A DNA stretch of 62,342 nucleotides, counting the filler, from Globobulimina sp. (Eukaryota): the NCBI GenBank assembly GCA_003354225.1. It is 35 parts of 35 records of this genome, joined end to end, with 100 filler letters (N's around TTAATTAATTAA, not from the genome) between each part and the next. Parts side by side here need not be neighbours in the genome. Positions count along the whole stretch, not along the records: positions 21,421 to 23,104 come from PIVH01013148.1; positions 23,205 to 24,888 come from PIVH01013149.1; positions 24,989 to 26,672 come from PIVH01013150.1; positions 26,773 to 28,456 come from PIVH01013151.1; positions 28,557 to 30,240 come from PIVH01013152.1; positions 30,341 to 32,024 come from PIVH01013153.1; positions 32,125 to 33,808 come from PIVH01013154.1; positions 33,909 to 35,592 come from PIVH01013155.1; 27 more parts are not named here. One strand, written 5' to 3'. The position numbers and the translations under genes were made by a program. Shown here in pieces: positions 21,925 through 58,776 of this stretch; within the stretch, counting starts at the first letter, position 1, and each line of letters opens with the position of its first letter. Below the pieces are notes generated by a model, which made no database searches, was not told the DNA's origin, and saw only the letters and a program-made list of their open reading frames with translations.

Positions 21925-22608
21925 TTAACAGTATAACAATTCAACAGCACATCCGCTATGATATGTACGTATTACCGCCCTGTATTTTGTTCTCTCGATA
22001 TTTCTATGAGCAATCCCCATATCTGCACCATTCACACTATATTTAAGTGTGAAATTGGTAAGATCCAGATACATATCTATTATATCGCCAGTTTTACATT
22101 TAACGCCATATTGTGCTCCAGACCCCGTGCCATTGGCATTCATCATATATCCAACAGCGACTCTATAAACATAGCCACATTTAAAAACACCATGTCTCTG
22201 CTCCCAAAAATTTTGAATTGGCTGGTTCATCGCATTTGTTTTCCATATCCCAACAACCATTGCGTATCCCAGCGTTGATGACAGTTGTTTTATTCTGAAT
22301 TTCCAATGGTGTGAGCCATACTGCACAGTGTTTTTGCCATAAACCGAACAATAGCCGGTGCCTCCAATATGAGTGATACAATTTTTATTTAGGGAGTGCT
22401 TTGGGAAAATATATTGAGTGTCCCATTCGTCATACAAATGATAAAACACCGCACATATATTTTGAATGATATCTGGGAAATAATAATATGAATTTGTTTT
22501 GGAAATACTGCCAAATATATTGCTTTGTTGTTCTCTCAAATAACCATAAACAATCGATTTACTTCTGTTATTCACATGCTTTGATTTCTCGAATAAATTG
22601 AAAGTCAT
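21925..22608 (-). CDS. SPRY/B30.2-like domain protein with N-terminal GY-module
   Basis: HHWKFRIKQ, MVVGIW, YGVKCKTGDIIDMYLDLTNFTLKYSVNG and YRAVI match the SPRY pattern. Confidence 0.8.
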   Translation of the reverse strand: MTFNLFEKSKHVNNRSKSIVYGYLREQQSNIFGSISKTNSYYYFPDIIQNICAVFYHLYDEWDTQYIFPKHSLNKNCITHIGGTGYCSVYGKNTVQYGSHHWKFRIKQLSSTLGYAMVVGIWKTNAMNQPIQNFWEQRHGVFKCGYVYRVAVGYMMNANGTGSGAQYGVKCKTGDIIDMYLDLTNFTLKYSVNGADMGIAHRNIERTKYRAVIRTYHSGCAVELLYC

Positions 22609-22839
22609 ACACAGTGTATAGGTAATTTAATTCTTTTCGTTGGTAATTAAAATTGATCTTAGATCCCATTGTTGCAAACTAAGGAACATTCTTTTTTTGA
22701 GTTAGCATCTAATGTGCTACAACATGCAGGCATTCAGATATTAAAAAGGCCCAAGCAATACAACATAACTAAATGCTGACATCATTGTGTCACTTCGAGA
22801 AATCTTGAAATGGCTTTTCGCCGTGATTTCTCGAGCGAG

Positions 22840-23104
22840 CTATTCATAGTTTATGTTCAACGCTGCCAACTTATCCAAAACATTTTGTTTTGTGTTTATT
22901 TCAACAATCTGCTCTCCATTCAAAATCTCACCATTTGTTTGTCGCTGTTCCAATGTTGTAATATCTTTATATTTTTCATTTAGTTTTCTTATTTTATTCC
23001 GCTTTTTTTTATCATCTTCTTGTTTATCTATTTTGTTCCTTTCCATTCGCATCTCCTCTGATAACATCACACCGCTTCCATAGGAAAAGTTACCTTTTCC
23101 CCAA
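22840..23104 (-). CDS. C-terminal coiled-coil hairpin of the PYM/eIF2A C-terminal type (fragment)
   Basis: KKRNKIRKLNEKYKDITTLEQRQTNGEILNGEQIVEINTK pattern. Confidence 0.45.
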
Positions 23105-23204
23105 NNNNNNNNNNNNNNNNNNNNNNNNNNNNNNNNNNNNNNNNNNNNTTAATTAATTAANNNNNNNNNNNNNNNNNNNNNNNNNNNNNNNNNNNNNNNN
23201 NNNN

Positions 23205-23618
23205 GGAAGTGATAATATTGCTAGATTAGATCGATGGATTTCAGCTGAGAATAATGATGGAATTGAAATGATTCAAAAAGGAGTTAAATCGTTTGATGAT
23301 TTTTTTAGTGTCACATTATTGCAAAATAAAGTGGTTTTATGGCTGTTAAGGATATTAACATTTTTTATGATAAGTGGTGGAGCGTATATTTGGTGTGGAT
23401 TCTTAAATGAATTAGTGATCGAATTGCCAGTTGTTAATAAATTAACATTTAATTCTATACCAATATTAAGTTTAATATTTGGATTATTTTGCTATTCCAT
23501 ATTGTTTGGTGTTTGTTGGACATTTTATCATCCATTTGGTGGAAGCATTATTGTTGCGGTTGCTATTATTTTAATAGTTTGTATTCAAACTGGGTATGTG
23601 TTTATATATTTTGTTTAA
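23205..23618 (+). CDS. TMEM43-like membrane protein, C-terminal fragment
   Basis: WLLRILTFFM, LPVVNKL and CWTFYHP with four C-terminal TM segments, as in TMEM43. Confidence 0.6.
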   Translation, partial: GSDNIARLDRWISAENNDGIEMIQKGVKSFDDFFSVTLLQNKVVLWLLRILTFFMISGGAYIWCGFLNELVIELPVVNKLTFNSIPILSLIFGLFCYSILFGVCWTFYHPFGGSIIVAVAIILIVCIQTGYVFIYFV

Positions 23619-23958
23619 TGTTTGCTCTTTTTGTTTATGCAATGAAATGTTCAGATTACTTTCAATGGAACAGAATGGAACACACAATGATAAGGAATAC
23701 AACAAAGTGACGCAAAACGAACAAGAGGAATATTCCGAATATAGCAGTGGTTATAATATCGACGACTGATGTGATTGCATAGCAAATTGAGGATTGCTGA
23801 CGATGTTGATTTTTTTGTTGTTGAATGGCATCAATTAAATGCTAAATAACACGTGGAAATGTTATAATTTGTGATTAGAATATTTAATTTTCATGAATTT
23901 ATCTTGACGACCTAAACGTTCTTAGTTAGAAAAAAAGTACTGAACCTATATCACCAGG

Positions 23959-24888
23959 ATGGGCTGCACTTTTTCTAAAAAGAAGAACTATGCAAATCGT
24001 TATAAAACTAAGATTGCGTCGAGCAATGCTTATGACTTGAAATTTCCCATAGAAACCAAATTGCTGTGTTTCATATTTTCATTCTTTATATATCATATTC
24101 TGTGGAATTTATTCATTTTATATTCAGACTGGACAATTTTGGATTTACAAATCTCAAAACAACTGCAATTATATGCATTGAATGCAAAGATTGTGTTCCC
24201 CAAAATTTTAGCAGACAAAATTAACAAATTATCATATTTGCAAAATGATACTGATGTTATCATTGCTGGCATGGTCCGTAATGCACAAAATACTTTACCT
24301 GACCTTCTGAAGCAAGTCGAATTATTCGCTTGCTCATTTCACTCCGCTCATATTGTTATTTTTGAAAGCAACTCTCATGATTTGACACCATTGATTTTGA
24401 ATAATTGGTTGAAAGCAATGAAATCATCAAATAATATGAACAAATCAGCAGATAAAATATGTCAACATTACAACAAAATGATTCATATAACATTGTTACA
24501 GCCACAATACGAATTGCTAAGTGTTCGGAAATTGTATCAACACCATCGGAGAGCAAAGATGAAACACTCAAATTTCAATAAAGAAGATGTGAGAATTGGT
24601 AAATATGTGCAATATAGGAATCTGATGTTAAATTATATTCAAAAAGTGCAAAAAGCAAATAATATTAATATTGATTATTTAATTTGGATGGATTTTGATT
24701 TAGTTGGTTTTGATATGCAGCGGTATTTAACGGAGTTTATGCATATGCACAAAAAGGAGAAATACTATCATGTATTGTGTGGAAACGGTATTAAATATAA
24801 CGGTTGGTATTATGATACATATTCGACTGTTTTCGGAGATTTTAATGATGAAAATGATGGAAATGATTGGGCGTATTTAGAATATCAC
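23959..24888 (+). CDS. GT-A glycosyltransferase, CAP59/GT69-like; 3' truncated
   Basis: VIIAGMVRN, IVIFESNSHDLT, RIGKYVQYRN, DxD motif WMDFDL, LCGNG and YYDTY; N-terminal TM anchor. Confidence 0.75.
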
Positions 24889-25159
24889 NNNNNNNNNNNN
24901 NNNNNNNNNNNNNNNNNNNNNNNNNNNNNNNNTTAATTAATTAANNNNNNNNNNNNNNNNNNNNNNNNNNNNNNNNNNNNNNNNNNNNACATCAATTTGG
25001 TGGAAAAAAAAAAAACATTTTAAAAAAAAAAAAAAAGAATCTTTAAAAAAAAAAATTTAAAATAAATTTATATTTGTTAGTTTTTTTTTTTTTTTACAGT
25101 TTCTTGTTTGATAAGGTATCGAGTCAGAAATATCACGATTAAACAATATACTTTCAAAC

Positions 25160-26593
25160 GTGTCAATATTTTTGACAAACGAAATATATTGTGAACAAAT
25201 AGATACCATTATACTCATTTTACAAACAAAATGTAACATCACAAATGATCAAATTAAAACACACTCCAACAACTTGGCGTTTTGTATCAACAGAAAGTAT
25301 TGGTCACAAATATTTGCATTATATAATAACTCGATTGCAGTTCAAAATATAGTAAATATAAATAATGAATCGTCTATCAATTATAAACAAAATGAAGAAT
25401 ACGAAGAGTTAGTGTTGATTTTTAAAGAGAGTTTACCATCTGATAAAGACACGAAAAATAAATTTATTCAAATGCTGAATAATATTAATAACAACAGAAA
25501 CAAACAGACGTACACACTGAATCCAAGAATATTACAGTTTGCAGGAGAAAGTAAAAAAGGTTTTTGTAAATCATGTAATGTAAAAATCGGAAAACATGAA
25601 GGCAGTTTTTGCGACAATGGTGATGATTGCATAATATTAGAAATAGATAAAGAAAATAAAACAAACGATAGACACACACATTCAAATAATGGTTTGTCGT
25701 TCCATGCAGAGTGTTGCGCGCATTTACATTTTGATCATATTGACTTATGCGGAGGATGCATTTTAAAAGCACAACACGAGTTAAGAGAGTTTCCAACGTT
25801 TAAGAAATATGGTAAAAATAAAAGAGAAAAAAACAAGTTTGTGGATGAAATAAATCTAGTTTTACAACAAAAATATGTTTCAGTGCAATGTTATTTTGCT
25901 TACGTTTGGATAATACTATTTATTGGCCAGTCTGTTGATAAAGACTTTGAATTATATTTCGCGTGCCCAATGCATTCATTATATTTATATAATAAAAGTA
26001 TTGCAACATATTCAATGGAACTTCAAATATTAAAATATTGTGATAAATATGATATTTCAACACCAAACACTTTACCAGAACCTGTTTTGTTTGCAAGAAA
26101 CGTATCGAGAACAATTTCGATGAGTGACACTGTGTTACAAACTGTAAATCAAAGTTTACAAAACATTTATAAAAAAGCAACTATCAATTTTGTCGCACAT
26201 TCGCATGATAATCATTGTATGGGTATGCTTCAGGTTAATTATCCATCAGCAAGAGCGAAAAGTATACAACAAAAACAAATACGACTTCTTTTAAACAAGA
26301 AAATAATATCTGCCACCAAATATAATAACAAATCAAGAATAATTAATAAACACGAGAAAATTGTCGGTTTTGAAGATTTAGAGAATTTCACTGTGAAAAT
26401 GAATTTTGTGATTTATTGGATGTACTTTTCGTATAAATTTAACGAATCGAAAGCAAGAACACTATATATTGAAAATATGTTAAAGAAACCTGGTGCAAAA
26501 ACTGTGTCTGTACCACGCAATTATAGTTTAGCAGTAAAGCAAATAAGTACAGAACAAACATCAAGGGATGAAAAGGACAGAACAGTAAAATAA
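25160..26593 (+). CDS. Hypothetical protein with a PHD-like Zn finger
   Basis: 477-aa intron-free ORF with CKSC..CDNGDDC..FHAEC..CGGC (C4-H-C3 spacing). The start codon is uncertain. Confidence 0.55.
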   Translation: MSIFLTNEIYCEQIDTIILILQTKCNITNDQIKTHSNNLAFCINRKYWSQIFALYNNSIAVQNIVNINNESSINYKQNEEYEELVLIFKESLPSDKDTKNKFIQMLNNINNNRNKQTYTLNPRILQFAGESKKGFCKSCNVKIGKHEGSFCDNGDDCIILEIDKENKTNDRHTHSNNGLSFHAECCAHLHFDHIDLCGGCILKAQHELREFPTFKKYGKNKREKNKFVDEINLVLQQKYVSVQCYFAYVWIILFIGQSVDKDFELYFACPMHSLYLYNKSIATYSMELQILKYCDKYDISTPNTLPEPVLFARNVSRTISMSDTVLQTVNQSLQNIYKKATINFVAHSHDNHCMGMLQVNYPSARAKSIQQKQIRLLLNKKIISATKYNNKSRIINKHEKIVGFEDLENFTVKMNFVIYWMYFSYKFNESKARTLYIENMLKKPGAKTVSVPRNYSLAVKQISTEQTSRDEKDRTVK

Positions 26594-26772
26594 TATTTTT
26601 TATATAAAAAAAAGGAATTTTATTCAAAGAGGAAGAGGAAGAGGAAGAGGTTATTTTGCTCGCAGCGGAAGANNNNNNNNNNNNNNNNNNNNNNNNNNNN
26701 NNNNNNNNNNNNNNNNTTAATTAATTAANNNNNNNNNNNNNNNNNNNNNNNNNNNNNNNNNNNNNNNNNNNN

Positions 26773-28456
26773 CCCATTCGAACTAATTTTCATTTTCTTA
26801 CCTTTTGGTATTTGCATATTAATATCCTCGCCAATCTCATCCAATTTCCTTTTGGTTCCACTCAATTTATTATTATTATCGTCATTTGATCGTATTGTCG
26901 ATGCCAATCCATTCTCATTTCCATCATTTTCTTCATTTATACCAAACGAAACTGATTTTGAGTTCAATTTTTCTCCATTTTCCGACGAAGAAATAATATC
27001 AAATTCTTGCTGCATTGGCAAATCTGTTGACATTTAGAAACATATTTTTTTATCAAAAAAATAAAAATAATATTATACCACTTTGCAACTGATTCAATTG
27101 CATTTCATCATTTTCCTCAGAAACAGAAACTGATTTTTCCTTCGAATTCGCATCTTCGTTTTCTTTCATATCAATATCAATGTCGTCATCATCTTTATCG
27201 TTATCATTGTTATTATTCTGTGCCTTATCATCGTCCATATCATCAATTAATGGATTAAAACTATTTTGTGTCTCTGAAAAAGTTAATATTGGATCATCCA
27301 AATCCTTTAAACCGACATATTCTTTTTTTTTACGTGCGACTGCTTTCCGTCTACTTCGCGTACTCACTATCGATTTTTTACGTTTTTTGTTTCTTTTCTT
27401 GTTTTCTTTGTTAATATCTGTAATGTCTACGTCCCGCGATTTGGTTTCTGTGCTTTCATTTTCTTTTTCTTTTGCTTTTTCCTGAAATTTATGATATATT
27501 GTATGAATTAACGGATATTCTTTTTTCATTCGTTTTGAATCGATAATTAATTTAATTTGGGGATTGTTATCAATACAACAATGAGTACACGTCATCTCCA
27601 TATACGTAGTGAAACATTTACAGATCAAATCATATAACAACACATTATCCGATTCTGTCGACTCTGAGCTCTGAGGGAAACACTCAAAACTTTCATTGTT
27701 AATGTAATATAACAATTTATTTGATATTTTTTCGCACCAAATATTAATATATTCAGTTTCTGATAATTTTGATAAATATCTATTGAATGATTTGATAAAA
27801 TGCTTGGCCGATTTTATCCATTTATGTGACAGTGAATCAATCTCATTATTTCGATGCATTATATATAAAAAAGTGGAGGTTATTAATTCAAACAATTGCT
27901 TATTATGTTGAATATCGGCTGATTCTAACAATAAATGCAAACAATTAATTAATAGTAAATCGGTTGCGATCTCGTTTTGTAATTTAAATTGTTTGCATTT
28001 ACACCATTTCATGAAAATTAATTCGTGATTGGCGTCGCATAAACAATTATAAATATTTGTTATAAATGCATTTAAATTTGATTTATTTAAATCATTGACC
28101 AATTTGTGAGTAATATCGATTGCATTTGATGCTAACATGGAACATTTGTGAGCAATCTCATTTTTTTCATTTGGTTCAAACCATTCTATTTTAAATATTA
28201 CGCTATTATTTGCATTGAATTTGATATCAAAAATAGTGATGAATTTAAATAATAATTCCAATGACTGTTGAGAGAGTGATATTATTTTATTATAAATATC
28301 TTTTTTATTCTCGTTAATAATATTATTTGTATTTAATAATTGTTGAATTGATTGGATTGGAAGTAAATCATTAAATATTTGGTGGAAAATATGTGATAAA
28401 ACGCGACACAAATTTCTTAATGTACCACTATCATTGTTTTGAATTTCAGTCATTTT
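26773..28456 (-). CDS. Large nuclear-type protein fragment (helical repeats then acidic/basic disordered tail), 2 exons (intron 27024-27078)
   Basis: A 55-bp GT..AG intron joins ORFs 27053..28453 and 26725..27033 in frame. NLS-like basic clusters and a KSVSF motif are present. Confidence 0.6.
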
Positions 28457-28556
28457 NNNNNNNNNNNNNNNNNNNNNNNNNNNNNNNNNNNNNNNNNNNN
28501 TTAATTAATTAANNNNNNNNNNNNNNNNNNNNNNNNNNNNNNNNNNNNNNNNNNNN

Positions 28557-33908: not shown

Positions 33909-35592
33909 ATTCAGAAAAACAACAAATACAAATGCCGGGCGATGAAAAGGAAAATGATTTTGACAAAAATTGGATGATGCGGGAGTTGAAGCAAATTAAT
34001 TTGAACATTGAAACTATTAAATTACCGAAACAATATATTGCTGAAAGAGTAAATATAATAAATAAGTTAGTCAATAACAAACAAACTGTGTTTAAATTAG
34101 AATCATGTTATTATGGGTTATGCGCTGATGCTGCTTCCTCGAAATTGCATTGTATACATTTCTGGAAGCCACATGTTAAGCGATCGAAGGTAAGTTTTTT
34201 AACAAATTTGTTGCATATATTACCTTCATGACACAAATATATTTCTAAATGTGTGTATACTGTGCATTTTGTTGCATAATCAAAGGACGTTCACTTGTTT
34301 GAATATATGCCAGCTGACGATGTTTGGGGAAGAATTAGAATGAGTGTATCATGCAAATATTGGTTAACTGTGATACCAAATAAAGGCATAGTTAAGTTAT
34401 GTGGTGTAATGAGAGACGACAGTCAGTTATGGAGAGTGGAACAAGTAAATGTGTTGGGAAATGAACATAAGATTTGGATTCGAATTGTTAATAAAATGGG
34501 ATATAAATTGATTTTTGCGTGGAAGCATTCCATTTATTGCTTGAATTCATCAATGCCATTATTGTCTGTTTCAGATAAAATACATGAAATTGATGCTTTA
34601 TGCATTGATATATTCTCTGTGGCAAAAAATAATTTCACCACAAAATTTAGTGTATACCATGAAAAATATAAAAATGTTTCAAGTCAAGAGATATTGCGCC
34701 GTATTGGAGGAACATTGAACCAACATTCATTTTGGAGGTTGCCAGTGCAGGGAAACAAAGCCCATCCAACAAAATTCGATTGCTATAAAGCAAAATTAAA
34801 GAATATTGCAAAGGTATTATGGGAGGTTAAAGAGAGATATATCCAGTCATTGTATAGTAAGCAAACAGATATAATCGATGTTGATGTTGAGATTAAAAAA
34901 GCAAAACATGTGATGGAAATTGAACAAGTTATTGAAAGCGATGATATTTATGGTTGGCTGCTACATTTTGTTGCATTGCCACAACATTATGACATATTTA
35001 TTGCAGAAGGTTTTGAAGATTTTGAAACTATTTTAGAAATTGATGAAGAGGATTTAATTCAAATGAATATCAATCAAAAACAACATCGCATTAAGATACT
35101 TGAAGCAGTGCAGCAAATAAAGTCAAACACTGCACATAAAATGCCATCCATCGAACAAGCAGCGACTCAGTCCTCTATGCAAATGTCGTCCATTCAGCAA
35201 CAAGCAGCCCATCAACGGTCGCCATCAATGGGACAAACTCAACAATCACAGCCAGCGCAATCCATGCAAAGCGGACCGCAGTCTGCATCTATTTATGCCG
35301 GTTCTGCCTCAATCACTCGCCCATCGGGTTTAACTGCATCGCGGCTCCCGCCGATAACTAAGAGACACTGTGCTGCCCAGTTGGCACAGAGGATTGATGC
35401 GGCTGCGAGGCCACGGCGCCGGAGGCCACCACCATTTGTTGGCGGGCAAACAAGTGCGCCGATGTTGGAAGTGAATCCATTGACTTCTGAAATGTTACAG
35501 GATGCCAAACCCTCAGAGAAGAAGCGTTTAATTGGAGAACGATTATTTCCAAAAATTCAAGTGGTGGAACCTCGATTAGCTGGAAAAATCAC
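33909..35592 (+). CDS. Multidomain protein: unknown N-terminal region + SAM + Q/S-rich linker + MLLE (PABC) domain; intron 34190-34285
   Basis: A 96-bp GTAAGT..AAAG intron joins the ORFs in frame. IYGWL..LPQHYDIFIAEGFEDFETI (SAM); PLTSEMLQDAKPSEKKRLIGERLFPKIQVVEPRLAGKI (MLLE). Confidence 0.8.
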
Positions 35593-35692
35593 NNNNNNNN
35601 NNNNNNNNNNNNNNNNNNNNNNNNNNNNNNNNNNNNTTAATTAATTAANNNNNNNNNNNNNNNNNNNNNNNNNNNNNNNNNNNNNNNNNNNN

Positions 35693-42116: not shown

Positions 42117-42133
42117 TGTAAGAAGAGTTTGCA

Positions 42134-43076: not shown

Positions 43077-43133
43077 TGACTGCCATTTTCAAGGTGAGGT
43101 CTTTGCACTTATGTTGAAGTAAACGTTTTTGAG

Positions 43134-44390
43134 TTGAAGACAATGTCTCAGTTTTGCGAGTTCAATGCAAGATGTGAGACATTAAAACGAATCTCAAACT
43201 ATTTACATTTGTATCAAACCTTGGCACCCACTGATTATTCAATTTTGAATGAAACAAAATACCCATCCATAATTAAAGATTTTCAACATGTTTTGAACAA
43301 TCATTTATTTATAAAACATTTGTCAATGGATACTATTCTGGGGAACTATACTGTACTCAGTCAAACAACAACAAAATATATTAAAAAATGTCAATTAAAA
43401 CAATGCAAAACATTATCTGAGCAGTGGGAAACCATAAATCATGCAATTCGACACAAATTAAACTTACATTACAAAACAATGACAAAATCATTGGAGCGCA
43501 CAAAAGATGAATTTTATACCACTCACATTTCTTTAATGCATTACATATTTGTTCATTTAATTGAATATTCTGCCCATTTGGTGGGGATTACATTGATTGA
43601 CATCCATCGTAAATGTATGGCAATATCTACATTTGACGAAACACGCAAAGAGGAAGCGGATGACAGCGAAAACAGAACAATATTCATTGTAAATGGTTAT
43701 GCCAAACAGATATGGAAACAGTGCAAAATGATAATGTGGTACCCATCGAAAGCTGTACTTGATTTAATTGAATTGTATGTAGACATTGCGGACATATTCG
43801 ATGAAAGATACTGTCATAAAAATATAAAAATTGATCGCAAAACAATTGAATATGAGAATAACAGTTACATTTATTCACAAACAATACGACGGAGCGAAAC
43901 AAGAACAAATGTCTGGTATCATGTGTTTGGTCGCGACATTGTGAAAAAAGGAGATGTAAAAGTATGGAAATTTAAAATCTATTCCTCATTAAATCGCGGC
44001 TCGCTTATCATTGGAATCATTGAATCAAAGCAAAAAAATATCAATATTGGCGGTGCCGGGGTGGATTTCTCGGATTATGAGTATGGATTTGGTCTATGTA
44101 CCGATAATGGAACGGTTTACCACAATGACCGTATAATAAAAAACATGGGCTGGTTGATATGTGGCCGTACCAATGATATTATTGTGATGGAATTAGATAT
44201 GAAATCATTTCAGAATTATGGTGTATTGAAATATAAAATCAATGATAATAAACAAATCACAGTTTATACAGAAATTGATATGGGGAAAAGTTGGCAATTA
44301 GCTGTGGCATTGCATGATAATTCTGAGTTGGCATTGGTACCAAATACAGATCAATATAATGAAGATCAGGATGATGAGACTAGCAAATAA
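43134..44390 (+). CDS. Helical N-terminal region + GY-module + SPRY/B30.2-like domain
   Basis: VFGRDIVKKGDVKVWKFKI, LIIGIIE, TNDIIVMELDM..LKYKIND and WQLAVAL. Confidence 0.78.
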   Translation: MKTMSQFCEFNARCETLKRISNYLHLYQTLAPTDYSILNETKYPSIIKDFQHVLNNHLFIKHLSMDTILGNYTVLSQTTTKYIKKCQLKQCKTLSEQWETINHAIRHKLNLHYKTMTKSLERTKDEFYTTHISLMHYIFVHLIEYSAHLVGITLIDIHRKCMAISTFDETRKEEADDSENRTIFIVNGYAKQIWKQCKMIMWYPSKAVLDLIELYVDIADIFDERYCHKNIKIDRKTIEYENNSYIYSQTIRRSETRTNVWYHVFGRDIVKKGDVKVWKFKIYSSLNRGSLIIGIIESKQKNINIGGAGVDFSDYEYGFGLCTDNGTVYHNDRIIKNMGWLICGRTNDIIVMELDMKSFQNYGVLKYKINDNKQITVYTEIDMGKSWQLAVALHDNSELALVPNTDQYNEDQDDETSK

Positions 44391-44878: not shown

Positions 44879-45703
44879 ATGTCTTCAATTTGTCCGCCAC
44901 TTGTTGAATATTTGGTGTTTGGCTATGTCAAAAATGTGGAACAGGAATTCATATTAAGCCATGACGTGCCGTTTGTGATCAAAAAAATGTTCATTCGATA
45001 TTATTTCATCAATGAATATTTTGCAGATATTGGTACCAATATTGTGTTGCGCAAAAATAAAAAATGCGTATCCGTCGCAAAAAACAAATTCCAGACAGCA
45101 TATGGTTCAATAATTATTGATTTCCGACAGAATAAATTCTATAAATGGAAATTTAAAATAATGGATGCAAAACCAGGAAATATTTCTATCGGAATAGATA
45201 AAGTTGATTCATTATTACTGGATGGATGTTTTGCAGCATATGGGCCCCGACATGCATGCATAAATCGGGAAGCATGCAACGGTGATATTATTGTGATGAC
45301 AGTGACTGGCACATCGATGCTCAAAATAAAATTTGACGTTAATGGAGCCATCGATGGATTTTTAGGCGGCGGTGAGTTGGATTGGGAGGGAGGCAAATAT
45401 AAAATGGCAGTCTCAGTCAGTCAAAATGCTACAATTGAATTGATGGATTATATTGAAATTGAGATTGATAATTTTAAGGATACGAAATTAAATTCATTTG
45501 ATACATTTCTGCAGAATGTTGATTATGAAAAAGATGCAGAAAATGAAACAGATTTTGTGATTGACTATGATCAAAATGAAGTGCAAGATGTAGATATTGG
45601 TTTAACGCAATTTGATCAGGACATAAACTCGCAATTTGATGCAAATGAAACACAGGATGTGGATGTTGCGTTAACTGAATTTGATCCAAACATAAATGAA
45701 TAA
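44879..45703 (+). CDS. GY-module + SPRY/B30.2-like domain + acidic repeat tail
   Basis: TAYGSIII, YKWKFKI, ISIGID, NGDIIVMTV..FDVNG and YKMAVSV. The tail has two copies of DxNExQDVDxxLTxFDxxIN. Confidence 0.78.
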   Translation: MSSICPPLVEYLVFGYVKNVEQEFILSHDVPFVIKKMFIRYYFINEYFADIGTNIVLRKNKKCVSVAKNKFQTAYGSIIIDFRQNKFYKWKFKIMDAKPGNISIGIDKVDSLLLDGCFAAYGPRHACINREACNGDIIVMTVTGTSMLKIKFDVNGAIDGFLGGGELDWEGGKYKMAVSVSQNATIELMDYIEIEIDNFKDTKLNSFDTFLQNVDYEKDAENETDFVIDYDQNEVQDVDIGLTQFDQDINSQFDANETQDVDVALTEFDPNINE

Positions 45704-45723
45704 ATTTTCTTTGCCAGTCCAGT

Positions 45724-46044: not shown

Positions 46045-46051
46045 TTATCAT

Positions 46052-46099: not shown

Positions 46100-46395
46100 C
46101 ATTTCTTTCTGGAGCTTTTAGTGACCAGCATTACGTATTAGAAATTATCGAAATCTTTGCTGGCTGAATAATTTCACCAACTTCAATATAGTAAATTTGG
46201 AGCAATGCGGCTTTAACAAGATAGAGATAGCATTAAAAATTAACTGAGTAAGTCACAATCGAGGGTGCCTAATCCAAACTCAAATAAGGATTTTANNNNN
46301 NNNNNNNNNNNNNNNNNNNNNNNNNNNNNNNNNNNNNNNTTAATTAATTAANNNNNNNNNNNNNNNNNNNNNNNNNNNNNNNNNNNNNNNNNNNN

Positions 46396-47983
46396 GATGC
46401 AACAATAGTTCTTCCATTTTGTCCCGGAGGAATATTTTGTTCATTTTCAGGAGAAATTCTAACACCATCAATAGTAAATGGTTGTTCTATAGCAAAACTA
46501 CCTCCAGCATTGGCTGCATCAATAGCCTGAACACTCCAAACATAATTACCAGGCACTAAATGAAGTGTATGTGTATTACTTTGGATTGGACCTCTTTGTG
46601 ATATTAATCGTTTCCCATTAAGGGATTCATTTTGCCTAAAAGAGTTTACAGGATTAATATATTTATTTGAGTCTATGTCATAAACATAAAGATTATAGGA
46701 CAATCCTTTGGTTTGATTATTATCTGAGGCTTCATTCCAACTGAGAGTTACTTCATTTGCGTTAACAGTACTTTGTAATTAGCAATCTCATCAGGCGTAC
46801 TGTTTACTGTTAAAATTTCATTTCTGTAAATTTTTGAAACCCATTCTGAGCCAGTATACCCAATTATTAATATATCTAAATCCCCATCATTATCATAATC
46901 CCCACATGCTACATTGCTATTTTCCAAATCAGTAACTGAGGCATCTACAAGTTCAGTAAAATTTCCATTACCAGTATTGATGTATATTTTTGTTACAGGA
47001 TTATAATTAGCTTCACCTGTTAAAATTATATCTAAATGGCTATCGTTATTGAAATCTGCCCAGGAAACTTTAGCATCTTGCACATTTATTAGCGGAATAC
47101 CAATTTGCTCTACGAAATTGTTTTCACCATTATTCTTGTAGATTTTGGTTATTTCTCCATCTATAGAACGTCCTGTCATTAATATATCTAAATCCCCATC
47201 ATTATCATAATCACCCCAGGCAGAACAACTAAATGATATGTTGGTTAGTTCAATATCACTTTGTTCTACAAAAACACTTTTCCCATCGTTTCTATAAATG
47301 ATGGTGTTTCGATAATTATTTGAGGCATAGCCAGTTAGTAGGATGTCTAAATCTCCATCATTATCATAATCACCCCAATCTCCATTTCCATACGAAGTAT
47401 TGAGAATTTCAATGTTCACTTGCTCTATAAAACCATCCACTCCGTTATTTTTGTATATTTTTGTAACAGGATCTGTATCATTCGGCGTTCCTGCTTTCCC
47501 AGTTAAAAGAAGATCAAAATCTCCATCATTGTCATAATCACCCCAATCTATAGTACCATAATATACCCCAGTAATTACAATGTTTTTCCTTTCTATGAAT
47601 TGAACCCCATCATTATTTTCATAAATATTTGTGATATATTCTGCTCCGGTATATCCTGCAATTGAAATATCCAAATCGTTATCGTTGTCAAAATCTATCC
47701 ATTTTACGGTACAATTTCTTACTCCAATTAGATTAATTTGGGTTTGTTCGGAAAAACTATTATCTCCATTATTCTTATAAACCCTAGATATATTATCATT
47801 CCCTGTATAACCAGCTAATAAAATATCCAGATCTCCGTCGTTGTCATAATCACCCCAATCAACGCTGCCCAAACCGACTCCTTCTAAAGAAATGCTTGTT
47901 TGTTCAGTAAACTCTTGAGCAATTAAATAATTTCCTACTATTAGAAAGCTGAAAATTGCAAGAAGTGATTTAAACTTTTTCAT
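46396..47983 (-). CDS. Bacterial secreted FG-GAP/VCBS-repeat protein with FN3-like domain (Bacteroidota style); 1-bp frameshift near 46777
   Basis: Signal peptide MKKFKSLLAIFSFLIVGNYLIAQ and seven WGDYDNDGDLD-type repeats. A shifted frame continues LQSTVNANEVTLSWNEASDNNQTKGLSYNLYV into ORF 46344..46703. Confidence 0.9.
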
Positions 47984-48178
47984 AATTACATTTGATTAAT
48001 AAACATTAGGGATTGTTGAAAGAAAGGTCGTTGAAATCTAAATCATTCAATAATTATCTTTTTCAAATAAGTATTTTTNNNNNNNNNNNNNNNNNNNNNN
48101 NNNNNNNNNNNNNNNNNNNNNNTTAATTAATTAANNNNNNNNNNNNNNNNNNNNNNNNNNNNNNNNNNNNNNNNNNNN

Positions 48179-51253: not shown

Positions 51254-51314
51254 TGTCGTTCAGTAAAGTCACTTCAACAAAACTTCAATATCAATAGATT
51301 GTTTCTATCAAATC

Positions 51315-51644: not shown

Positions 51645-51744
51645 NNNNNNNNNNNNNNNNNNNNNNNNNNNNNNNNNNNNNNNNNNNNTTAATTAATTAA
51701 NNNNNNNNNNNNNNNNNNNNNNNNNNNNNNNNNNNNNNNNNNNN

Positions 51745-52008
51745 ACGAGAGTATATTCGTTACTTTGTCAGTTAAAAGAAAAGAATGACAATTTGAATAT
51801 AAATAAGATTATAATATTTTTTGTGTTGAAAAGTCATTATCATTTGAAGGACAGTGATGATTTAAAAACAAATATAAATATAAATATAAAAGAGATTTTT
51901 AATTTTTGCAATAAATTGAATGTCGCTCCACAAACTGTCAACAAAATACATGAAATTATAAGGCAAGAAATTAATTTACAGGATGGCTATGATGAGGTGT
52001 TTGTATAA
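51745..52008 (+). CDS. C-terminal fragment of a hypothetical protein
   Basis: Frame is open from the contig start to the stop at 52008. Confidence 0.4.
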   Translation, partial: TRVYSLLCQLKEKNDNLNINKIIIFFVLKSHYHLKDSDDLKTNININIKEIFNFCNKLNVAPQTVNKIHEIIRQEINLQDGYDEVFV

Positions 52009-52025
52009 AACAATGTTATGCATAT

Positions 52026-52721
52026 TTATTTTTTCAGTTGCAATTGTGCGTCAGTCATTAATTGAAATAACGTATCTTCATTGCCATCCAAATTATGATA
52101 TCTCGCGATTCTATCAAATAATTGTTTATATAATGATGCATTGCTATCGGTATACATTTTTATTTTACGTCTCAATGCGTCAATCTCTTTTGAAGTGGCA
52201 TCGATTAAGTTATACTTTGAATCCTTCAGCTCTTGATATAAAACTTTGAAATTTCTTGTTTCCTTAACATATTTTGTGACTTCTTCCTCCCACGCTTCGT
52301 TTACTATTGCTATTTGGAGCTGCGCTTTGTCGCTCTCCTCGCCATCTTTCAACTCTTCGATTTCATTTTGGAGATCTTCACATTCTGCCCGCGAATCTTC
52401 CGATGTTCGCTTTTCTGTTAAAAACCTTGATTTCCAATTATCAATTTTAACATTAAAATTATCATTATTTTGCAATTGATATTTCTCAATTTGTTTCCTC
52501 AAGTTTTCCACCAATTTCATTCCTAATTTATTTGTTTCAGCCATTTTATCATTTTCCTTTTGATAATGTTTAATTAATTTTAGACCTTTTTCTTCTCTTT
52601 TCCCCCATTCAATTCTTTCAATTTGCACACTCCGAAATAATTTCATATACTCTGCCCTCCAAACTTCAACTTGTTCATTTATGGTCATTGTATCATTGAT
52701 AAAATCCAAACGTATTTCCAT
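52026..52721 (-). CDS. Coiled-coil protein
   Basis: E/K-rich heptad pattern. The likely start is MEIRLDF at 52721 or the next Met. Confidence 0.6.
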   Translation of the reverse strand: MEIRLDFINDTMTINEQVEVWRAEYMKLFRSVQIERIEWGKREEKGLKLIKHYQKENDKMAETNKLGMKLVENLRKQIEKYQLQNNDNFNVKIDNWKSRFLTEKRTSEDSRAECEDLQNEIEELKDGEESDKAQLQIAIVNEAWEEEVTKYVKETRNFKVLYQELKDSKYNLIDATSKEIDALRRKIKMYTDSNASLYKQLFDRIARYHNLDGNEDTLFQLMTDAQLQLKK

Positions 52722-52811
52722 TTTGTAGCAATGCAAAGCAGAATAGAATGCAAAGCAGAATTTTAATAGAATACAAAGCACAACAAAAAAACTTTTGAGG
52801 ATCATCAAAAT

Positions 52812-53297
52812 ATGCAAAACCTGTTACTAAAACGCACATGTTTCATTATAAAGCAAGGATATTTGTCAAATTATAAATATGTCATAAGATTGCATGCTTC
52901 CAATACCACAAATAATGAAAGTTGCATTACGTTGCGGTGGATAAAAGACGGTGATGACTGTAATGATAAGAGTACAGTAATAGTAACAACGAATGTAGCC
53001 ATTGGGATATCTCTGTTAGAAGCAGCGCATAAAAACGGTATTGATTTGGAAGGTGCATGCGAATCTTCATTGGCATGTTCAACATGTCATGTAATTTTAG
53101 AGGACAATATTTATGACAAACTGGATGAACCAAATGATGATGAATATGATATGTTAGATTTAGCATTTGGTTTAAAAGAAACCTCAAGATTGGGATGCCA
53201 AATTATTTTAAATCAATCAATGGATAACATGTTAATTACATTGCCAACTGCAACACGGAATTTTTATATCGATGGACACAAACCACAGCCACATTAA
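52812..53297 (+). CDS. Mitochondrial adrenodoxin-type [2Fe-2S] ferredoxin (Yah1/FDX2-like)
   Basis: EGACESSLACSTCHV, DMLDLAFGLKETSRLGCQI and NFYIDGHKPQPH; basic transit-peptide-like N-terminus. Confidence 0.95.
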   Translation: MQNLLLKRTCFIIKQGYLSNYKYVIRLHASNTTNNESCITLRWIKDGDDCNDKSTVIVTTNVAIGISLLEAAHKNGIDLEGACESSLACSTCHVILEDNIYDKLDEPNDDEYDMLDLAFGLKETSRLGCQIILNQSMDNMLITLPTATRNFYIDGHKPQPH

Positions 53298-55413
53298 ACA
53301 CATTTAAGTGATTCAACAAACACTGTCAAACAGTTTATCCTTGCACTCAGTCAGCGATCTCGAAAAATGCTATTTGTATACACTACATAGTATAATGATT
53401 TTACTAATTCTTATTCACTCTGAAAAGNNNNNNNNNNNNNNNNNNNNNNNNNNNNNNNNNNNNNNNNNNNNTTAATTAATTAANNNNNNNNNNNNNNNNN
53501 NNNNNNNNNNNNNNNNNNNNNNNNNNNATAAAAACTGCTTTTGATAGTTGCATACGCTATGTAACTATCAAAAGCGATTTTCAGATGATATGAAGTACAC
53601 TTCGAATTTAAAATTGAAGAACGGACATAAATTATATAAATACAAACCAAAACATGAACCAAACAAAACAAATTTAAATGTAAAATGTGTGGCACAACAG
53701 AACAGAAAATTTAATGAAAAACAAGAAATTGTTCAAAGTAGTCAAAAAGAGACACAAAATCATATATATGAACTCATGGGTTTATAAATCCTAAAAGCGC
53801 TGACATAATTTTTCATTTATTCTATTTGATTGATTATAGTTTATTCTTATTTTCTGAAGGGTAGAGATTCAATAGAATACACAATGTGTTGATATGATAC
53901 TGTTGTCATTTGTTTTGCGATTGCAAAGATAAAAGTAAAAAACAATCACAGACACGTGCTATGTAACAGCATCAGTGTGAACTAGATATGTTTGGAAAAT
54001 GTCAAGACAAATAATGATGATGAAATTTGTTCGCAATGTGGACATAATTATTGATAAAATTTGCTGTTAACTATTCACTGTTTTAATTGTTTTAATTTAT
54101 AACAAGTGTTTTAATTGTTTTTAAACTAAAAAAAGAAAAAAAAAAGAAGAAAAAAGATTCCTCTAACTAAAAAAAATTCTTCTTGGGTTTTTGGGGCCTG
54201 CCCCCTCCTAGGTTAACAATGTGCGATGTAGCACCTTTTATTATATACGTTATGATGTTATATAAGCTTTTATAAAACATCTCATCACAAATTAAATAAT
54301 AAGTATAATAATAAAACATCTCATCACAAGTAACTAAATAATGATAAATATTGCTAAATAGGACCAATTCTGAATGATTATGGTTCGTATTTTACAAATG
54401 ATCGAAGATAAACAGAGCTATCTTTATCTTGAAATGCAACCATTGTTAGAAACCGCCCATTCGTTATATTGACACACAAACAGCGGGAACAGTGTCTGCA
54501 TTGCTGCAACATCTAAATAATAAACTATACTTTTTATAAATACTCACAAGATAACGGTCAGAATTTCAATACTGGAATGAAAATGGACTGCTTATGGCCC
54601 AAATAACATTTCCTGTTTTCATATCTAAAGCTTGTAAATCGTTGTTACTGTCAAATATTATGCAAATATTGCAGTTATTCTACAGAAGACATGACCATCT
54701 GTGCTGTAAATTAAATATTCTACATCACAAAGAATAGGATGTTGTGATTCAAGCATCAAATCTTTGCTAAATCTGTATAATGTCACAGTGGATATATCGT
54801 TCGAATGATTGCTTTATGTTTGTTATTAATATCTGTTACAATAAAAATATTTCAATTGGAATACAAATAAGGGAGTCACATAAACATACAACAATATCAA
54901 ATTTATTCTTGTTGCAGTTATTATTATTATGATTATCACCATTCCCATTTGACTTTTTGCTTCCTGCAAAATGGTCGATGGAAACGTACAGCATAAATCA
55001 CCAGCATAAATCTTTTTGCTTTACTGAATAATCACCAGCATAAATCTAAATATATCCATAATGGCCCTGGATTAATAATGCAGTTGGCCCTGGATTAGCA
55101 TTCACGGGATTAATATATAAACAAACGGGATTACTGACGTGCACCATTATTACCGTATTTTGAACAATTCTGTCATGCATAATATCCATTACTGTGGTGG
55201 AAAGCATCCANNNNNNNNNNNNNNNNNNNNNNNNNNNNNNNNNNNNNNNNNNNNTTAATTAATTAANNNNNNNNNNNNNNNNNNNNNNNNNNNNNNNNNN
55301 NNNNNNNNNNAAACAAGGAATTGGACCAAAATAATTCGACGACTTGCAGCCAGTTCTGGGCAAATCCGTCTCCTGTAGTCGCCCTTGTACTAAGTTTTTA
55401 GTTAAACACAACC

Positions 55414-56832
55414 ATGGCAGTTAAACATTTGCTTGAGCTACACACCACAGATAATATAATCATCGCGGATCAAATTGTTGCATTATTATCAGCAACATTT
55501 CTAATTATTATTCTACTTTGGGTGATTCTAAACTTTAAAAAAGAGCAATCGCTCAGCAAACCACTGTCACTCTCTTGCATTGTCTCAATAACATGTTTCA
55601 CATTATTTGCATTGATAGGCAGCATTGGTTGGACCAACGTAATATTTCCAATCTCGCCATTAAGCTGCAAAATCATCTATCCCTTAGGTTTAATCAATTA
55701 CAATATCGCCAAAATATCCATGTATTGGTTATTTACTTTAAGAATACAAGTCATATTTGAACATTCCGCCTTGGCATATAATGCAAACTTATTACTTATA
55801 TATCGAATGATTGCCGCTGTAATACCGTCCATCTTATGGTGCATATGGATATATTTATCATTTATCGATCTGAAACCGCATAAAGTAACTATCTATTCAC
55901 ATTGTTTTCCGCTCACATTCCGCAATGTAGCCATGGCCTCACATATAGCCGGTGCTTTAGCATGGAGCGATTTGATATTCTCCGCAATCGCTGTTTATAT
56001 GTTTATATACAAACTGTATCAAGTGACCCACTTAGCAAATGATAACATGACCGATAACGCAGCAAAAAATAAGCTAAGACACTCTCTATTATCCCCTACT
56101 AAAATCAACCAAAAATGGATGAACACCATACGCAAATCCACGGTGTTGTGCATAATCGCGATAGTATCGACATGGTCATATGTCTTAGGCACCGCATATA
56201 TACTGAGACAATGCGGTTTTTTTATATCATTTGATGGCGTAATTAATGCAATATGTCTATCGTTTTTGTTTAATTTTGCAAATAAATATTATAATAAATG
56301 TTTTAGAAACACTTTTGAACGATGTTGTATTGATATAATATGTTGTTGTTATTGGTGTAAAGAGAAACATAAACACAAATCAATGGGTGGTGCCACGGGA
56401 GTGTCAATAAACGCAGATAAGAATTACGATGTTGTAATTGTGTCAAATGCGGATGATTTAAATGATTTTAGTCTTTCCAGCAGCGAAGATATCTATAATA
56501 ATGATGGTGACATTGAAAATATGTTAATGAAACCGACTGTGGATAGTGATGCCATGGAACATATTGAAGATGATAGTCATGACACTGTAATGGCGGCAGC
56601 TTATGTAAGTCCAATTTATTCAATGATAACAGAAAAGGAAAAAATAAATAAAAAAAGAAACAATGCATCATTTTCAGGGAGTGAATCAAGTGTTACCTTT
56701 ATGTTATTGGATATGAGTGAAGAGGAAAATAATGATGATGATGATGAATATTATGAGGGAGATCAGGTCATTGATGCGTTAAAAGAAGAGGATGATGATG
56801 CGGCACAAATAGCGGATGATGAGCAAGACTGA
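55414..56832 (+). CDS. 7-TM GPCR-like receptor with palmitoylation-type Cys cluster and acidic tail
   Basis: Seven hydrophobic segments, Cys at the start of TM3 (LSCKI), and CCIDIICCCYWC after TM7. Confidence 0.75.
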   Translation: MAVKHLLELHTTDNIIIADQIVALLSATFLIIILLWVILNFKKEQSLSKPLSLSCIVSITCFTLFALIGSIGWTNVIFPISPLSCKIIYPLGLINYNIAKISMYWLFTLRIQVIFEHSALAYNANLLLIYRMIAAVIPSILWCIWIYLSFIDLKPHKVTIYSHCFPLTFRNVAMASHIAGALAWSDLIFSAIAVYMFIYKLYQVTHLANDNMTDNAAKNKLRHSLLSPTKINQKWMNTIRKSTVLCIIAIVSTWSYVLGTAYILRQCGFFISFDGVINAICLSFLFNFANKYYNKCFRNTFERCCIDIICCCYWCKEKHKHKSMGGATGVSINADKNYDVVIVSNADDLNDFSLSSSEDIYNNDGDIENMLMKPTVDSDAMEHIEDDSHDTVMAAAYVSPIYSMITEKEKINKKRNNASFSGSESSVTFMLLDMSEEENNDDDDEYYEGDQVIDALKEEDDDAAQIADDEQD

Positions 56833-57839
56833 ATGTACTTAATTATGACTGACTGTATAATATTTGTTGTTGTTTGTTGATCAAAATAGTGAGTTTTTAC
56901 TTTTTAATTTAATTTAATACATTAGGTGAAAGGATACGCGTACATTGGATTCACATTTCAAATTATTCAAAAATCATGTCTTGCCCCTTTACGNNNNNNN
57001 NNNNNNNNNNNNNNNNNNNNNNNNNNNNNNNNNNNNNTTAATTAATTAANNNNNNNNNNNNNNNNNNNNNNNNNNNNNNNNNNNNNNNNNNNNATTCAAT
57101 CTTTTTAATGATAAAAACACTTTGCTACACTCATTATGTGTACAAGTTAGTGTATGTTTAGTAATATTAAAATTGGTCAAAATCCGATCCAACTGTTTTT
57201 TAGGTGCTTTTTTACTGTGTTTTGCAGCAATAATTGCCGGTGGTATAAAGCCATGAATCTGTATTTGATGAATAATCATTGTTGGTCGATCCACAAATAT
57301 TTCCATGCAATCATGACAGCAAACGACTTAAAAATAGTGTTTTCAATAGAAATTATTATATGAGAAATTTCCAGAAAAATTTCCTTTTTGGATATAACAT
57401 ACATGTAAATCGACAGAGAGAACGATGTTTATTTATTTCATTGAGATTTTTCTCGATCAATGCAGCACATACACATTTTGTATGGTTATTTGTGATAAAT
57501 GTATTGCTTTGATTGAGTGTATGATGCGATTTAATGCATTTTAACTGGGGCTCAATAGGGACGGCGATTGACGTCAAATGTGATGTGCTTGAGATGGCAT
57601 GGTTGCGCTATCGGCGTGGGTCTGTTGTTTGTGTTTATTTTGTATTTGTATTGATTTGTATGTCATTTTTAGGTTTGTGATATAGGAGGAACATACAATG
57701 AAAACATCATAGAATTGGTTGCAATGATATGTATGGTTTAATCACTAGTTGAAATACAAACGTCAGGACTATTGTGACAAAAGATGTAAAAAACTTTAAG
57801 GTAACTAAAAAAGGAAAGCTATGACGCGACACACATCAA

Positions 57840-58776
57840 TTAAAAGCTTGGTATAATATTTAATTTTTTATTTAATTTTTTATCTATTTTTAATTCCATA
57901 TCTGTCAAAGATTTTACATTTTCTTCTTTCGACATATATTTATTTATAACGTCAATAATTTCGTGATCAATACCTTGCAATTCCGTACCGTTACGACGTA
58001 GATATCCATATATAATCAGTTTATTATTACATTCCACGTTTTTACCTTTATATTTTAAATTTTTTATAAACTCTTTCATAAATAATTTATATTCATCTTG
58101 TTTATAATTTTGTAATTTCAACTCAATAAAACTAACTAAATCACGATATATATCATAGTTTTTGAGTTTCTTTGTATTAATTAATGAGATGATATAACAA
58201 TTTAACTCATTGATATCATGATAACTTTTTTCAACTTTGAGCCATAGTTTATATATTTTCATTTGTTGTTTCATGCTTTGATTCATGAAAAACGATAAAG
58301 CATAATTCCTAAATAAGTCGCAAACAGTTTGTGAATATCCCGGTCGATCACCGCCGCCTTGTTCAACAAACAATTCTCTTTCGAAGAACCACTGATATAT
58401 ACAATGCCGAACATTTTTTTCTTTTTCAATGTACGGAATACCAACATAAATATACTAAACATAATTATTTCAAATGTTGAATTACAGACTGTATTATTTC
58501 TATTTTGTTTCCGGTATATTCAACATTTGAAAGTTTCCAAATGTTGCAGTATGAGTACAAGTCTGTACAACCTTGAATTTTCTTAACAATTTATTGCATA
58601 TTCTTGCTATTTTGTTATAATCATTATATTTTAATAACTCTTTGTCAAAAAAGCGTTTTGCGAAATATATTGGATTGGGATTATTGTTATGCGCGGATTG
58701 TAGCGAATTTTGTGGTGGTATTCTATCAAATATTACATCATAAAACGAAGAACGATCAAAATATGTCGGCAAAAAA
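57840..58776 (-). CDS. Hypothetical multi-exon protein with C-terminal GY-module; 5' truncated
   Basis: ORFs 58500..58772 and 57840..58373 lie on the same strand, separated by AT-rich intron-like DNA. Exact splice sites were not resolved. Confidence 0.55.

Follow-up and report, generated by a model that had tools for sequence, protein, structure and literature searches.

Several described systems resemble the one reported here. The F-box (PF00646/PF12937) shares with our GY box the register of its first helix and the partners SPRY, Kelch and RCC1; FBXO45 joins an F-box to a SPRY domain. However, the GY box has an extra conserved GYIR helix upstream, a free position in the protein, no helices 2–3 and no Pfam match. 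The SOCS/VHL box of SPSB proteins is likewise a short helical element with a Pro-led hydrophobic helix and a SPRY partner, but the GY box lacks the BC-box signature, and EloC, Cul2 and Cul5 were not recognised in the bin. According to PMC4353913, an F-box reduced to helix 1 still binds Skp1, and truncated viral and bacterial F-boxes (PRANC; cowpox CP77 cut to helix 1) indicate that one helix-1-type element suffices for this contact. These bind the canonical Skp1 of the host and follow ankyrin repeats, whereas the GY box is cellular, expanded and found beside remodelled Skp1 paralogs.

Trypanosome TbCul-E/F/G with Skp1.2–1.4 combine new Skp1 paralogs, extra cullins and Kelch/LRR receptors without an F-box, as found here; in the text available from that source (PMC12816148), no docking box is named and each complex has three to four receptors, whereas the foraminifer has a candidate box in more than 100 copies, known from sequence alone. 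In C. elegans, CUL-6, SKR-3,4,5 and FBXA-158 also pair a lineage-specific cullin and Skp1 paralogs with an F-box receptor, but the report (bioRxiv 10.1101/586834) describes true F-boxes, and an immune or stress role was shown there.

The GY box and its copies in the window

The window, the whole stretch of Globobulimina sp. DNA analysed (62,342 nucleotides, filler included), consists of 35 unlinked contigs of about 1.7 kb with N spacers between them. The sequence-only reading had quoted four peptides in it as copies of an unnamed module. These are real: all four are in frame, and they were the top four of 1,037 window ORFs (39.4, 38.7, 17.0 and 13.1 bits) with an HMM trained without any window copy, against 10.5 bits for the next real ORF and 8.9 for the highest-scoring reversed one. 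With a narrower leave-out HMM, the copies at 43665 (E 0.11) and 57933 (E 0.0097) were matched over their first helix only, the best reversed match being 0.064, and these two copies are therefore regarded as degenerate. The window thus holds two strong and two weak copies (Table 1).

Table 1. Positions of the GY boxes and of the domains associated with them in the window
Feature	Position	Strand	Context and evidence
G-alpha, degenerate P-loop and switch II, host of inserted box	7296..8504	+	Pfam G-alpha E 1e-36; motif check
Degenerate GY box inserted just after NKxD region of G-alpha	8208..8306	+	Below 8 bits itself; same-site boxes in paralogs
PRY-SPRY (B30.2-type) after copy 1	21934..22425	-	Pfam SPRY E 2e-5
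GY box copy 1, strong	22441..22575	-	N-terminal in 227-aa ORF (21925-22608)
GY box copy 2, degenerate	43665..43781	+	Internal in ORF 43098-44390; 13.1 bits, reversed maximum 8.9
SPRY-like domain after copy 2	43797..44348	+	Family SPRY profile E 8e-17; no Pfam match
GY box copy 3, strong	44894..45004	+	N-terminal in ORF 44879-45703; 39.4 bits; E 4e-8 with narrower HMM
SPRY-like domain after copy 3, then acidic tail	45017..45469	+	Family SPRY profile E 7e-18
GY box copy 4, weak, Pro replaced	57933..58034	-	Near end of open frame 57840-58454; no SPRY; 17.0 bits

Three copies had been placed directly before SPRY, and this was borne out. Pfam SPRY matched only the 21925 ORF among the window box ORFs, and a profile built on the SPRY part of this family matched immediately downstream of the box in all three ORFs (E 1e-40, 7e-18 and 8e-17). 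In the AlphaFold2 model of the copy-1 ORF, helices span residues 5–9, 14–32 and 46–56, and PRY strands follow helix B directly. The SPRY part (range 59–227) superposed on the TRIM67 PRYSPRY domain (VIA Z 21.0, rmsd 1.9, 153 aligned). The box lies outside the SPRY fold, as the top structural matches cover only model residues from about 50–63 to 227. Among 97 box ORFs of at least 120 aa, a SPRY-biased sample, 39 have SPRY after the box and the other 58 have a box without SPRY; in a less biased pattern sample, SPRY was found in only 4 of 18. The suggested repertoire of SPRY receptors is therefore too narrow.

The GY box is a helix-loop-Pro-helix module with the pattern [LV][VI]xG[YF]IR...[IV]PxxIxxx[CI]xx[YF]Y. 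The proposed module stands, but not its length of about 35 residues: it has about 45, with a short helix upstream. The loop is about 6 to 18 residues long, helix B has a Pro cap, and the site in the host protein may be N-terminal, internal or C-terminal (>100 loci). No family was matched by 34 members in Pfam or by the box in NCBIfam, and no match was found among PDB sequences. An ESM Atlas search with the box gave no usable match, and fold searches with the copy-1 model returned lists taken up by SPRY. Two single-protein queries of viral contigs, a weak test, revealed no relatives, and a sequencing-run search listed no RNA holder. In the literature on foraminifera and Reticulomyxa (SPRY, Skp1, cullin, F-box, WD40), mostly open papers without supplements, the box and the Skp1 paralogs are undescribed, although the genome paper on Reticulomyxa or the trypanosome Skp1 tree may mention them. 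The GY box is a real, conserved module without a recorded family, as the sequence-only reading had supposed.

Expansion, host proteins and fusions with Skp1

Our searches found at least about 110 copies in the genome, where several hundred are probably present, and 2,869 protein clusters match the box. The large expansion that had been read from the window is thus real, but the density is lower than the window suggests: a blind sample of 20 contigs (132 kb) contained one clear and one borderline match, which rules out extrapolating the window (4–5 copies per 59 kb) to the genome. No match above 9.7 bits occurred in 102 kb of BTB/F-box loci.

The partner domains are SPRY, Kelch, MATH, TLDc and RCC1, and C-terminal copies follow Kelch-type propellers. 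G-alpha, USP, kinase, EF1A-like, Ras-like, myosin, DnaJ and ubiquitin-like proteins are also hosts, with degenerate copies among the first four. Two boxes were present in 9 of 150 outside proteins, which is unusual for F-boxes. A weaker copy had been suspected in the window G-alpha; its own score does not support it, but in the paralogs L186, L187 and L188 a clearer box is inserted at the same site. In a query-biased set, 5 of 17 G-alpha loci have a box, and the switch II motif is absent from all five, whereas it is kept or nearly so in all six box-less loci showing that region.

With an independent HMM, the box was identified in at least 6 of 18 Skp1-family loci and in none of 29 BTB, 30 F-box and 7 cullin loci. 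The profile of the fusion module matched the box family with hhalign (Prob 97.1%, E 5e-11). Fusions L138 and L142 were picked up by no profile other than one trained on them, and L147 and L154 were recognised only by eye; a search with the L147 insert matched only itself, so its box remains a by-eye call. L155 was left out, as its box match belongs to a different gene, encoded on the opposite strand. The alignment of outside fusions comprised about 27 clusters, some with ids from the Rosalina and Elphidium transcriptomes according to PMC6783311, and orthologous fusions persist across species. The tree, of only 105 columns and with unsettled bootstrap and some chimeric-looking tails, requires at least three label changes on starred branches. 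A metagenome scan added two true fusions, while L252 and L253 were dropped as chance archaeal-type matches; ESM Atlas with a fusion gave only BTB-type leads under 0.85.

Compared with Skp1B, the 30 fusions are 82% identical in helix 6 and 86% in helix 7, and down to 25% in the N-terminal half, for which 17 divergent solo copies show 51%. An NY dipeptide is kept in 13 of the 30 fusions versus 17 of the 17 solo copies. The box is situated a few residues ahead of Skp1 strand 1, which by the general geometry of Skp1 is probably too far from helices 5–7 for binding in cis.

Skp1 paralogs, cullins and the F-box register

Beside canonical Skp1 (L049), the genome has the paralogs Skp1B (L048, L139) and Skp1C (L140, L047). 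They keep helices 5–7, and their remodelled, near-invariant tail is without canonical helix 8. L048 lacks the helix 7–8 loop and has a replaced tail, both parts being present in L049; it exceeded the Skp1_POZ cut-off, and its PDB matches (33/33) were all Skp1, with a best E of 1e-12. Skp1B is conserved, its best 120 homologs being 59–100% identical, and the exact Skp1B tail pattern occurs in 110 of 151 Skp1-type proteins, the canonical tail in one. PMC12101541 places the core of the F-box site in helices 5–7 and describes helix 8 as dispensable. In one contig of a viral collection, the encoded Skp1 has a comparably short tail and the 3 kb flanking it on each side contain no box, so the short tail need not be tied to the box.

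Four of the seven cullin loci form an extra group, the types being assigned mostly by eye. Neither Cul2 nor Cul5 was recognised among the seven, and no Elongin C was found among the Skp1_POZ or Skp1-like matches, the best candidates of which were scored in this fragmented, incomplete bin.

Helix B and the native F-box helix 1 have a common pattern (P-1, P, P+2 D/E, P+3, P+7, P+8, aromatic P+10 and P+11), scored on 91 of 112 boxes and 17 of 30 F-boxes. Exactly those 19 helix-1 columns were aligned by hhalign, although weakly (Prob 2.75%, P 0.017). Helices 2–3 and a VCKxW-type motif are absent after helix B in the consensus and the model. The comparison that the sequence-only reading had suggested was negative in Pfam, with none of 34 members matching F-box (at E up to 10), SOCS/BC-box, VHL or LisH models. 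It is also observed that a Pro-capped amphipathic helix by itself gives much of the F-box helix 1 pattern.

A Skp1- or Elongin C-binding box had been proposed. The Skp1 half gains indirect support from the fusions, the Skp1 paralogs and the helix-1 register, all sequence-based, whereas Elongin C is an unlikely partner, no EloC, Cul2 or Cul5 being recognised in the incomplete bin and the BC box being unmatched. What is new is the candidate partner, Skp1B/C.

Possible role of the box

Our analysis somewhat favours the GY box as a portable docking module that would bring the protein carrying it to an SCF-type ubiquitin ligase specific to this lineage. Helix B would sit in the groove of Skp1 helices 5–7 as F-box helix 1 does, and helix A may replace the missing F-box helices 2–3 and Skp1 helix 8. 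Skp1B/C and the extra cullins would serve the GY boxes, and canonical Skp1 the canonical F-boxes. The target for ubiquitination would be captured by whatever the box is attached to, be it a SPRY, Kelch, MATH, TLDc or RCC1 domain or a degenerate signalling-protein copy. That the partner domains are typical of cullin receptors supports this, and the trypanosome cullins with new Skp1 paralogs and F-box-less Kelch/LRR receptors, as described in PMC12816148, may serve as precedent.

The Skp1 fusions may nevertheless mean that Skp1 is a bait and not the partner, because the box is promiscuous (G-alpha, USP, kinase, EF1A-like and others). The box would then dock elsewhere, directly on a cullin N-terminus, on a DDB1- or CTLH-type platform or on some foraminiferal protein yet to be recognised, the fusions being a bait class that catches F-box proteins. 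The fusions keep the box-binding half and lose the cullin-facing half, as if the box had replaced the docking function, and the box is similarly grafted on degenerate G-alpha (switch II lost in 5/5 box loci), USP and kinase. However, we judge such docking unlikely: it offers no ligand family for the near-invariant tail of helix-8-less Skp1B/C, and it would explain neither the register match to F-box helix 1 nor why 30 F-box and 29 BTB loci have no box. A LisH-like module for homo- or hetero-oligomerisation, or a localisation handle with no ligase role, is more improbable still: the first helix, L-[IV]-x-x-Y-[IL], resembles LisH helix 1, and two-box proteins and internal insertions exist, but the short GY turn between helices was not found, the loop is variable, a Pro caps helix B, and the two LisH matches of the genome are other proteins with no score against the box HMM.

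A SOCS/VHL-type combination of BC box and cullin box, binding Elongin B/C and Cul2 or Cul5, is a very improbable identity for the GY box. Its order of helix, spacer and Pro-led hydrophobic pattern is that of a cullin box (hydrophobic-P-x-x-hydrophobic-x-x-x-hydrophobic), with P0, P+3 and P+7 hydrophobic after the spacer, and C-terminal copies follow propellers. F-box helix 1 fits this pattern equally, however, and in the column frequencies of the first helix the Leu and Cys positions of a BC box ([STP]LxxxC/Axxx-hydrophobic) are variable; the Elongin C and cullin searches above also stand against it. Barely credible is a translated footprint of a selfish DNA element inserting in frame, with no protein function. 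Insertions do occur in frame in unrelated, often degenerate genes, but all synonymous codons are used at conserved residues, no stable DNA hairpin was found (mean z −0.38 over 60 copies; 6 below −2), and orthologous fusions have persisted.

Returning to docking on an SCF, a bolder form of it is possible but doubtful. Foraminifera may run a parallel second SCF, composed of the GY box, helix-8-less Skp1B/C and extra cullins with several hundred receptors, many being boxes grafted on catalytically degenerate housekeeping copies (G-alpha, USP, kinase, EF1A-like GTPase, cullin-blind Skp1). These would be decoy baits through which the natural partners of those proteins, or symbiont or viral effectors that target them, are degraded; together they would amount to a natural library of integrated-decoy degraders.

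Even with another partner, the GY box, matched by 2,869 clusters, is a domain not yet on record and merits a family model. If SCF docking is correct, it would be a new adaptor-box class for cullin-RING ligases, in which a box and its Skp1 have changed together; the trypanosome data hint at such change without naming a box. With its need for a dedicated Skp1 paralog, a 45-residue box would also be a candidate handle for orthogonal degradation, and in each foraminiferal genome well over a hundred unnamed proteins would gain a job.

The GY box family and its partners

The four peptides quoted in the sequence-only reading are in frame at their positions on the 35 unlinked contigs (about 1.7 kb each, from a eukaryote bin of 70 Mb and 48,370 contigs), and in three of them the GY box, a helix-loop-Pro-helix module, lies directly upstream of an SPRY-type domain, as proposed. 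An HMM trained without these copies scored them at 39.4, 38.7, 17.0 and 13.1 bits, against a reversed-sequence maximum of 8.9. In the family alignment a short helix with LKxID comes first, followed by helix A with the pattern K-x-[LIT]-V-x-G-[YF]-I-R-x-x-Q-x-L, a variable loop and a second conserved segment (I-P-x-[LD]-[IV]-x-x-[IL]-[CI]-[LI]-x-[YF]-Y). The suspected G-alpha copy gains from clearer boxes at the same site in L186, L187 and L188, but is itself too degenerate for an HMM score; the G-alpha locus L196 has its box at another site.

Features with coordinates in the window and in two other loci
Feature	Source	Position	Strand
GY box	window	22441-22575	-
GY box	window	43665-43781	+
GY box	window	44894-45004	+
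GY box	window	57933-58034	-
Degenerate GY box in G-alpha	window	8208-8306	+
RecF-like ORF, contig bacterial-looking by eye	window	9876-10655	-
Ordinary F-box protein, E 0.008, under Pfam cut-off	window	17899-18645	-
ORF ending in MLLE-like stretch resembling that of L153	window	34280-35644	
FG-GAP/VCBS-repeat ORF, contig bacterial-looking by eye	window	46344-47995	-
L147, canonical-type Skp1 with box-like helix pair between helix 2 and strand 3, by eye	G000:C28028	234-938	-
L256, Skp1 with short helix-8-less tail resembling foraminiferal Skp1C type	viral collection	2881-3528	+

The AlphaFold2 model of the 21925 protein (88 sequences; pLDDT 90.2, pTM 0.83) has helices at residues 5-9, 14-32 and 46-56, with a beta sandwich downstream of them. 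Its best matches in fold searches including Foldseek were PRY-SPRY domains whose alignment starts near residues 50-63, so in this model the GY box is outside the PRY-SPRY fold.

Two 50-aa queries found 22 and 23 more places in the genome, with only two contigs in common. Exact DNA patterns gave 46 matches versus 4 in the control for VFGYIR, and 164 versus 35 for [LF][VIM]xGYI[RS]. Fetched loci held 109 distinct boxes of at least 15 bits, most of which had been in the HMM training set, versus 1 in reversed sequence; a blind sample of 132 kb held one clear and one borderline box, and 102 kb of scored BTB/F-box loci held none. These counts point to a few hundred copies in the genome, with a wide error. 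The predicted genome-wide family is coherent; its implied density was too high, the window being richer than the genome average. Seven loci (L054, L066, L067, L069, L091, L100 and L104) form a recent subfamily in which a propeller-like domain is followed by a C-terminal box that is almost the same in each.

Outside this genome, 2,869 of 1.84 billion representatives matched at E 0.001 or better; one outside protein, P0051, has two boxes, each followed, by eye, by RPEL-like actin-binding repeats. No family in Pfam, NCBIfam or PDB sequences matched, and a literature search whose coverage lacks most subscription papers found neither the box nor this genome's helix-8-less Skp1 paralogs described. 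The GY box is a real module, undescribed within that coverage.

Among 73 box-bearing ORFs of the genome, Pfam recognised SPRY in 10, TLDc, EF-Tu-type GTPase and RCC1 in two each, and Ras/Roc, MATH+SAM, UBA, UCH, TPR and kinase in single cases; 51 had no Pfam match. Another 21 ORFs also included Kelch, myosin head, ubiquitin-like and DnaJ-type domains, the box of one kinase ORF among them (L221) scoring only 3.7 bits. Several enzyme partners look degenerate: the USP has Asp at the catalytic Cys position, and the kinase L014 lacks the HRD and DFG motifs. The G-alpha switch II motif is absent in all five box-bearing loci and kept, or nearly so, in all six box-less loci showing the region.

Skp1 paralogs, box-Skp1 fusions and cullins

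Skp1-family matches occurred on 18 contigs, one being canonical (L049). The paralogs Skp1B (L048 on G000:C37101; L139) and Skp1C (L140, L047) have an altered helix 6 in common and lack the canonical helix 8. Skp1B is strongly conserved: identity is 59-100% for its best 120 homologs and 80-95% for its orthologs in dozens of clusters, and its exact tail pattern is in 110 of 151 fetched Skp1-type proteins. According to PMC12101541, the core site for the F-box is made up of Skp1 helices 5-7, with helix 8 supplying a second site that is dispensable. No GY box lies within 3 kb either side of the L256 Skp1. L153 (G000:C38186), listed together with L050 (G000:C32654), is by eye a degenerate Skp1B behind a PABP-C-like (MLLE) helical domain.

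An outside protein, P0266, led to a family with the GY box immediately upstream of Skp1 strand 1, and the profile of this fusion module matched the GY box family (Prob 97.1%, E 5e-11). An HMM built without fusions found the box in five Skp1 ORFs of the genome and in a frame, probably an exon, just upstream of a sixth (L146). The boxes of L138 and L142 were detected only by a profile trained on fusions, and those of L147 and L154 were recognised solely by eye; no relatives of the L147 insert were found. Control loci had no box (BTB 0/29, F-box 0/30, cullin 0/7). One public contig, possibly of source-sample origin, covers the entire L138 stretch and a second-study contig spans its Skp1 domain and most of its box, differing from it 33 times over 604 bases; since these contigs cover the fusion, an assembly chimera is unlikely. 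Close outside relatives of the genome's fusions carry the identifiers MMETSP0190 and MMETSP1385, which are Rosalina sp. and Elphidium margaritaceum in PMC6783311; on this ground the genome is probably that of a foraminiferan.

A tree of 62 rows and 105 columns, rough and with unsettled bootstrap, requires the fusion label to change at least three times on starred branches; it places fusions next to Skp1B and Skp1C and, in the case of L147, a by-eye call, next to canonical Skp1. Helices 6 and 7 of 30 fusions are 82% and 86% identical to Skp1B; N-half identity is 25%, versus 51% in 17 divergent solo copies. The NY dipeptide of Skp1, which has a role in cullin docking, is retained in 13 of the 30 fusions versus all 17 solo copies. 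The Skp1 N-terminal region is given as the cullin-docking part in PMC12101541. Fusions L138-L145 and P0273-P0301 also have a conserved motif (a helix, then G[YF]C) just upstream of the box. Several begin with a SAM domain and L146 with a UBA; P0294 and P0297 have a C-terminal NZF-like finger.

Four of the seven cullin loci form an extra group, whose identity to the remaining three does not exceed 48%: L082, L088 and L089 are 59-62% identical among themselves, and L087 is 40-53% identical to these. The C-terminal part of L088 is nearest Cul4 and Cul3, and its N-terminal part matches Cul4B only, weakly. By eye, a ubiquitin/NEDD8-like domain follows the cullin C-terminus within the last open frame of L089. 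Canonical F-boxes are also present (88 matches, E 0.1 or better).

Possible role of the GY box

The residue pattern of helix B of the GY box agrees with that of native F-box helix 1 at each position, down to the aromatic residue ten positions after the Pro, although its score against the F-box profile is weak (Prob 2.75%). The box is not an F-box by membership, having neither helices 2-3 nor a Pfam match. PMC4353913 reports that an F-box of which only helix 1 is left can retain Skp1 binding. Judged from sequence, the GY box probably acts in the manner of an F-box. As precedents for the whole system, the trypanosome cullins come nearest, working with new Skp1 paralogs and with receptors that have no F-box (PMC12816148); the C. 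elegans CUL-6/SKR system is a looser one.

We lean towards binding of helix B to Skp1B/C. The main rival, which we consider possible though clearly less probable, has the box docking on something else, with Skp1 as one bait of many; the fusions do not separate it from the favoured reading, and it agrees equally well with the grafting of the box onto degenerate proteins such as G-alpha. A LisH-like oligomerisation module is unlikely, the box not being recognised as LisH. The Elongin C box, the other half of the original proposal, is very improbable: the box did not pass as a BC-box, and no EloC, Cul2 or Cul5 was recognised in this incomplete bin. The footprint of selfish DNA, also a worse fit, seems the least probable.

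In the favoured Skp1B/C reading, helix B would enter the helix 5-7 groove and helix A would complete the helical bundle, so that whatever domain the GY box is attached to would be delivered to a cullin ligase specific to the lineage. The box-Skp1 fusions would then be regulators of, or receptors for, other GY box proteins.
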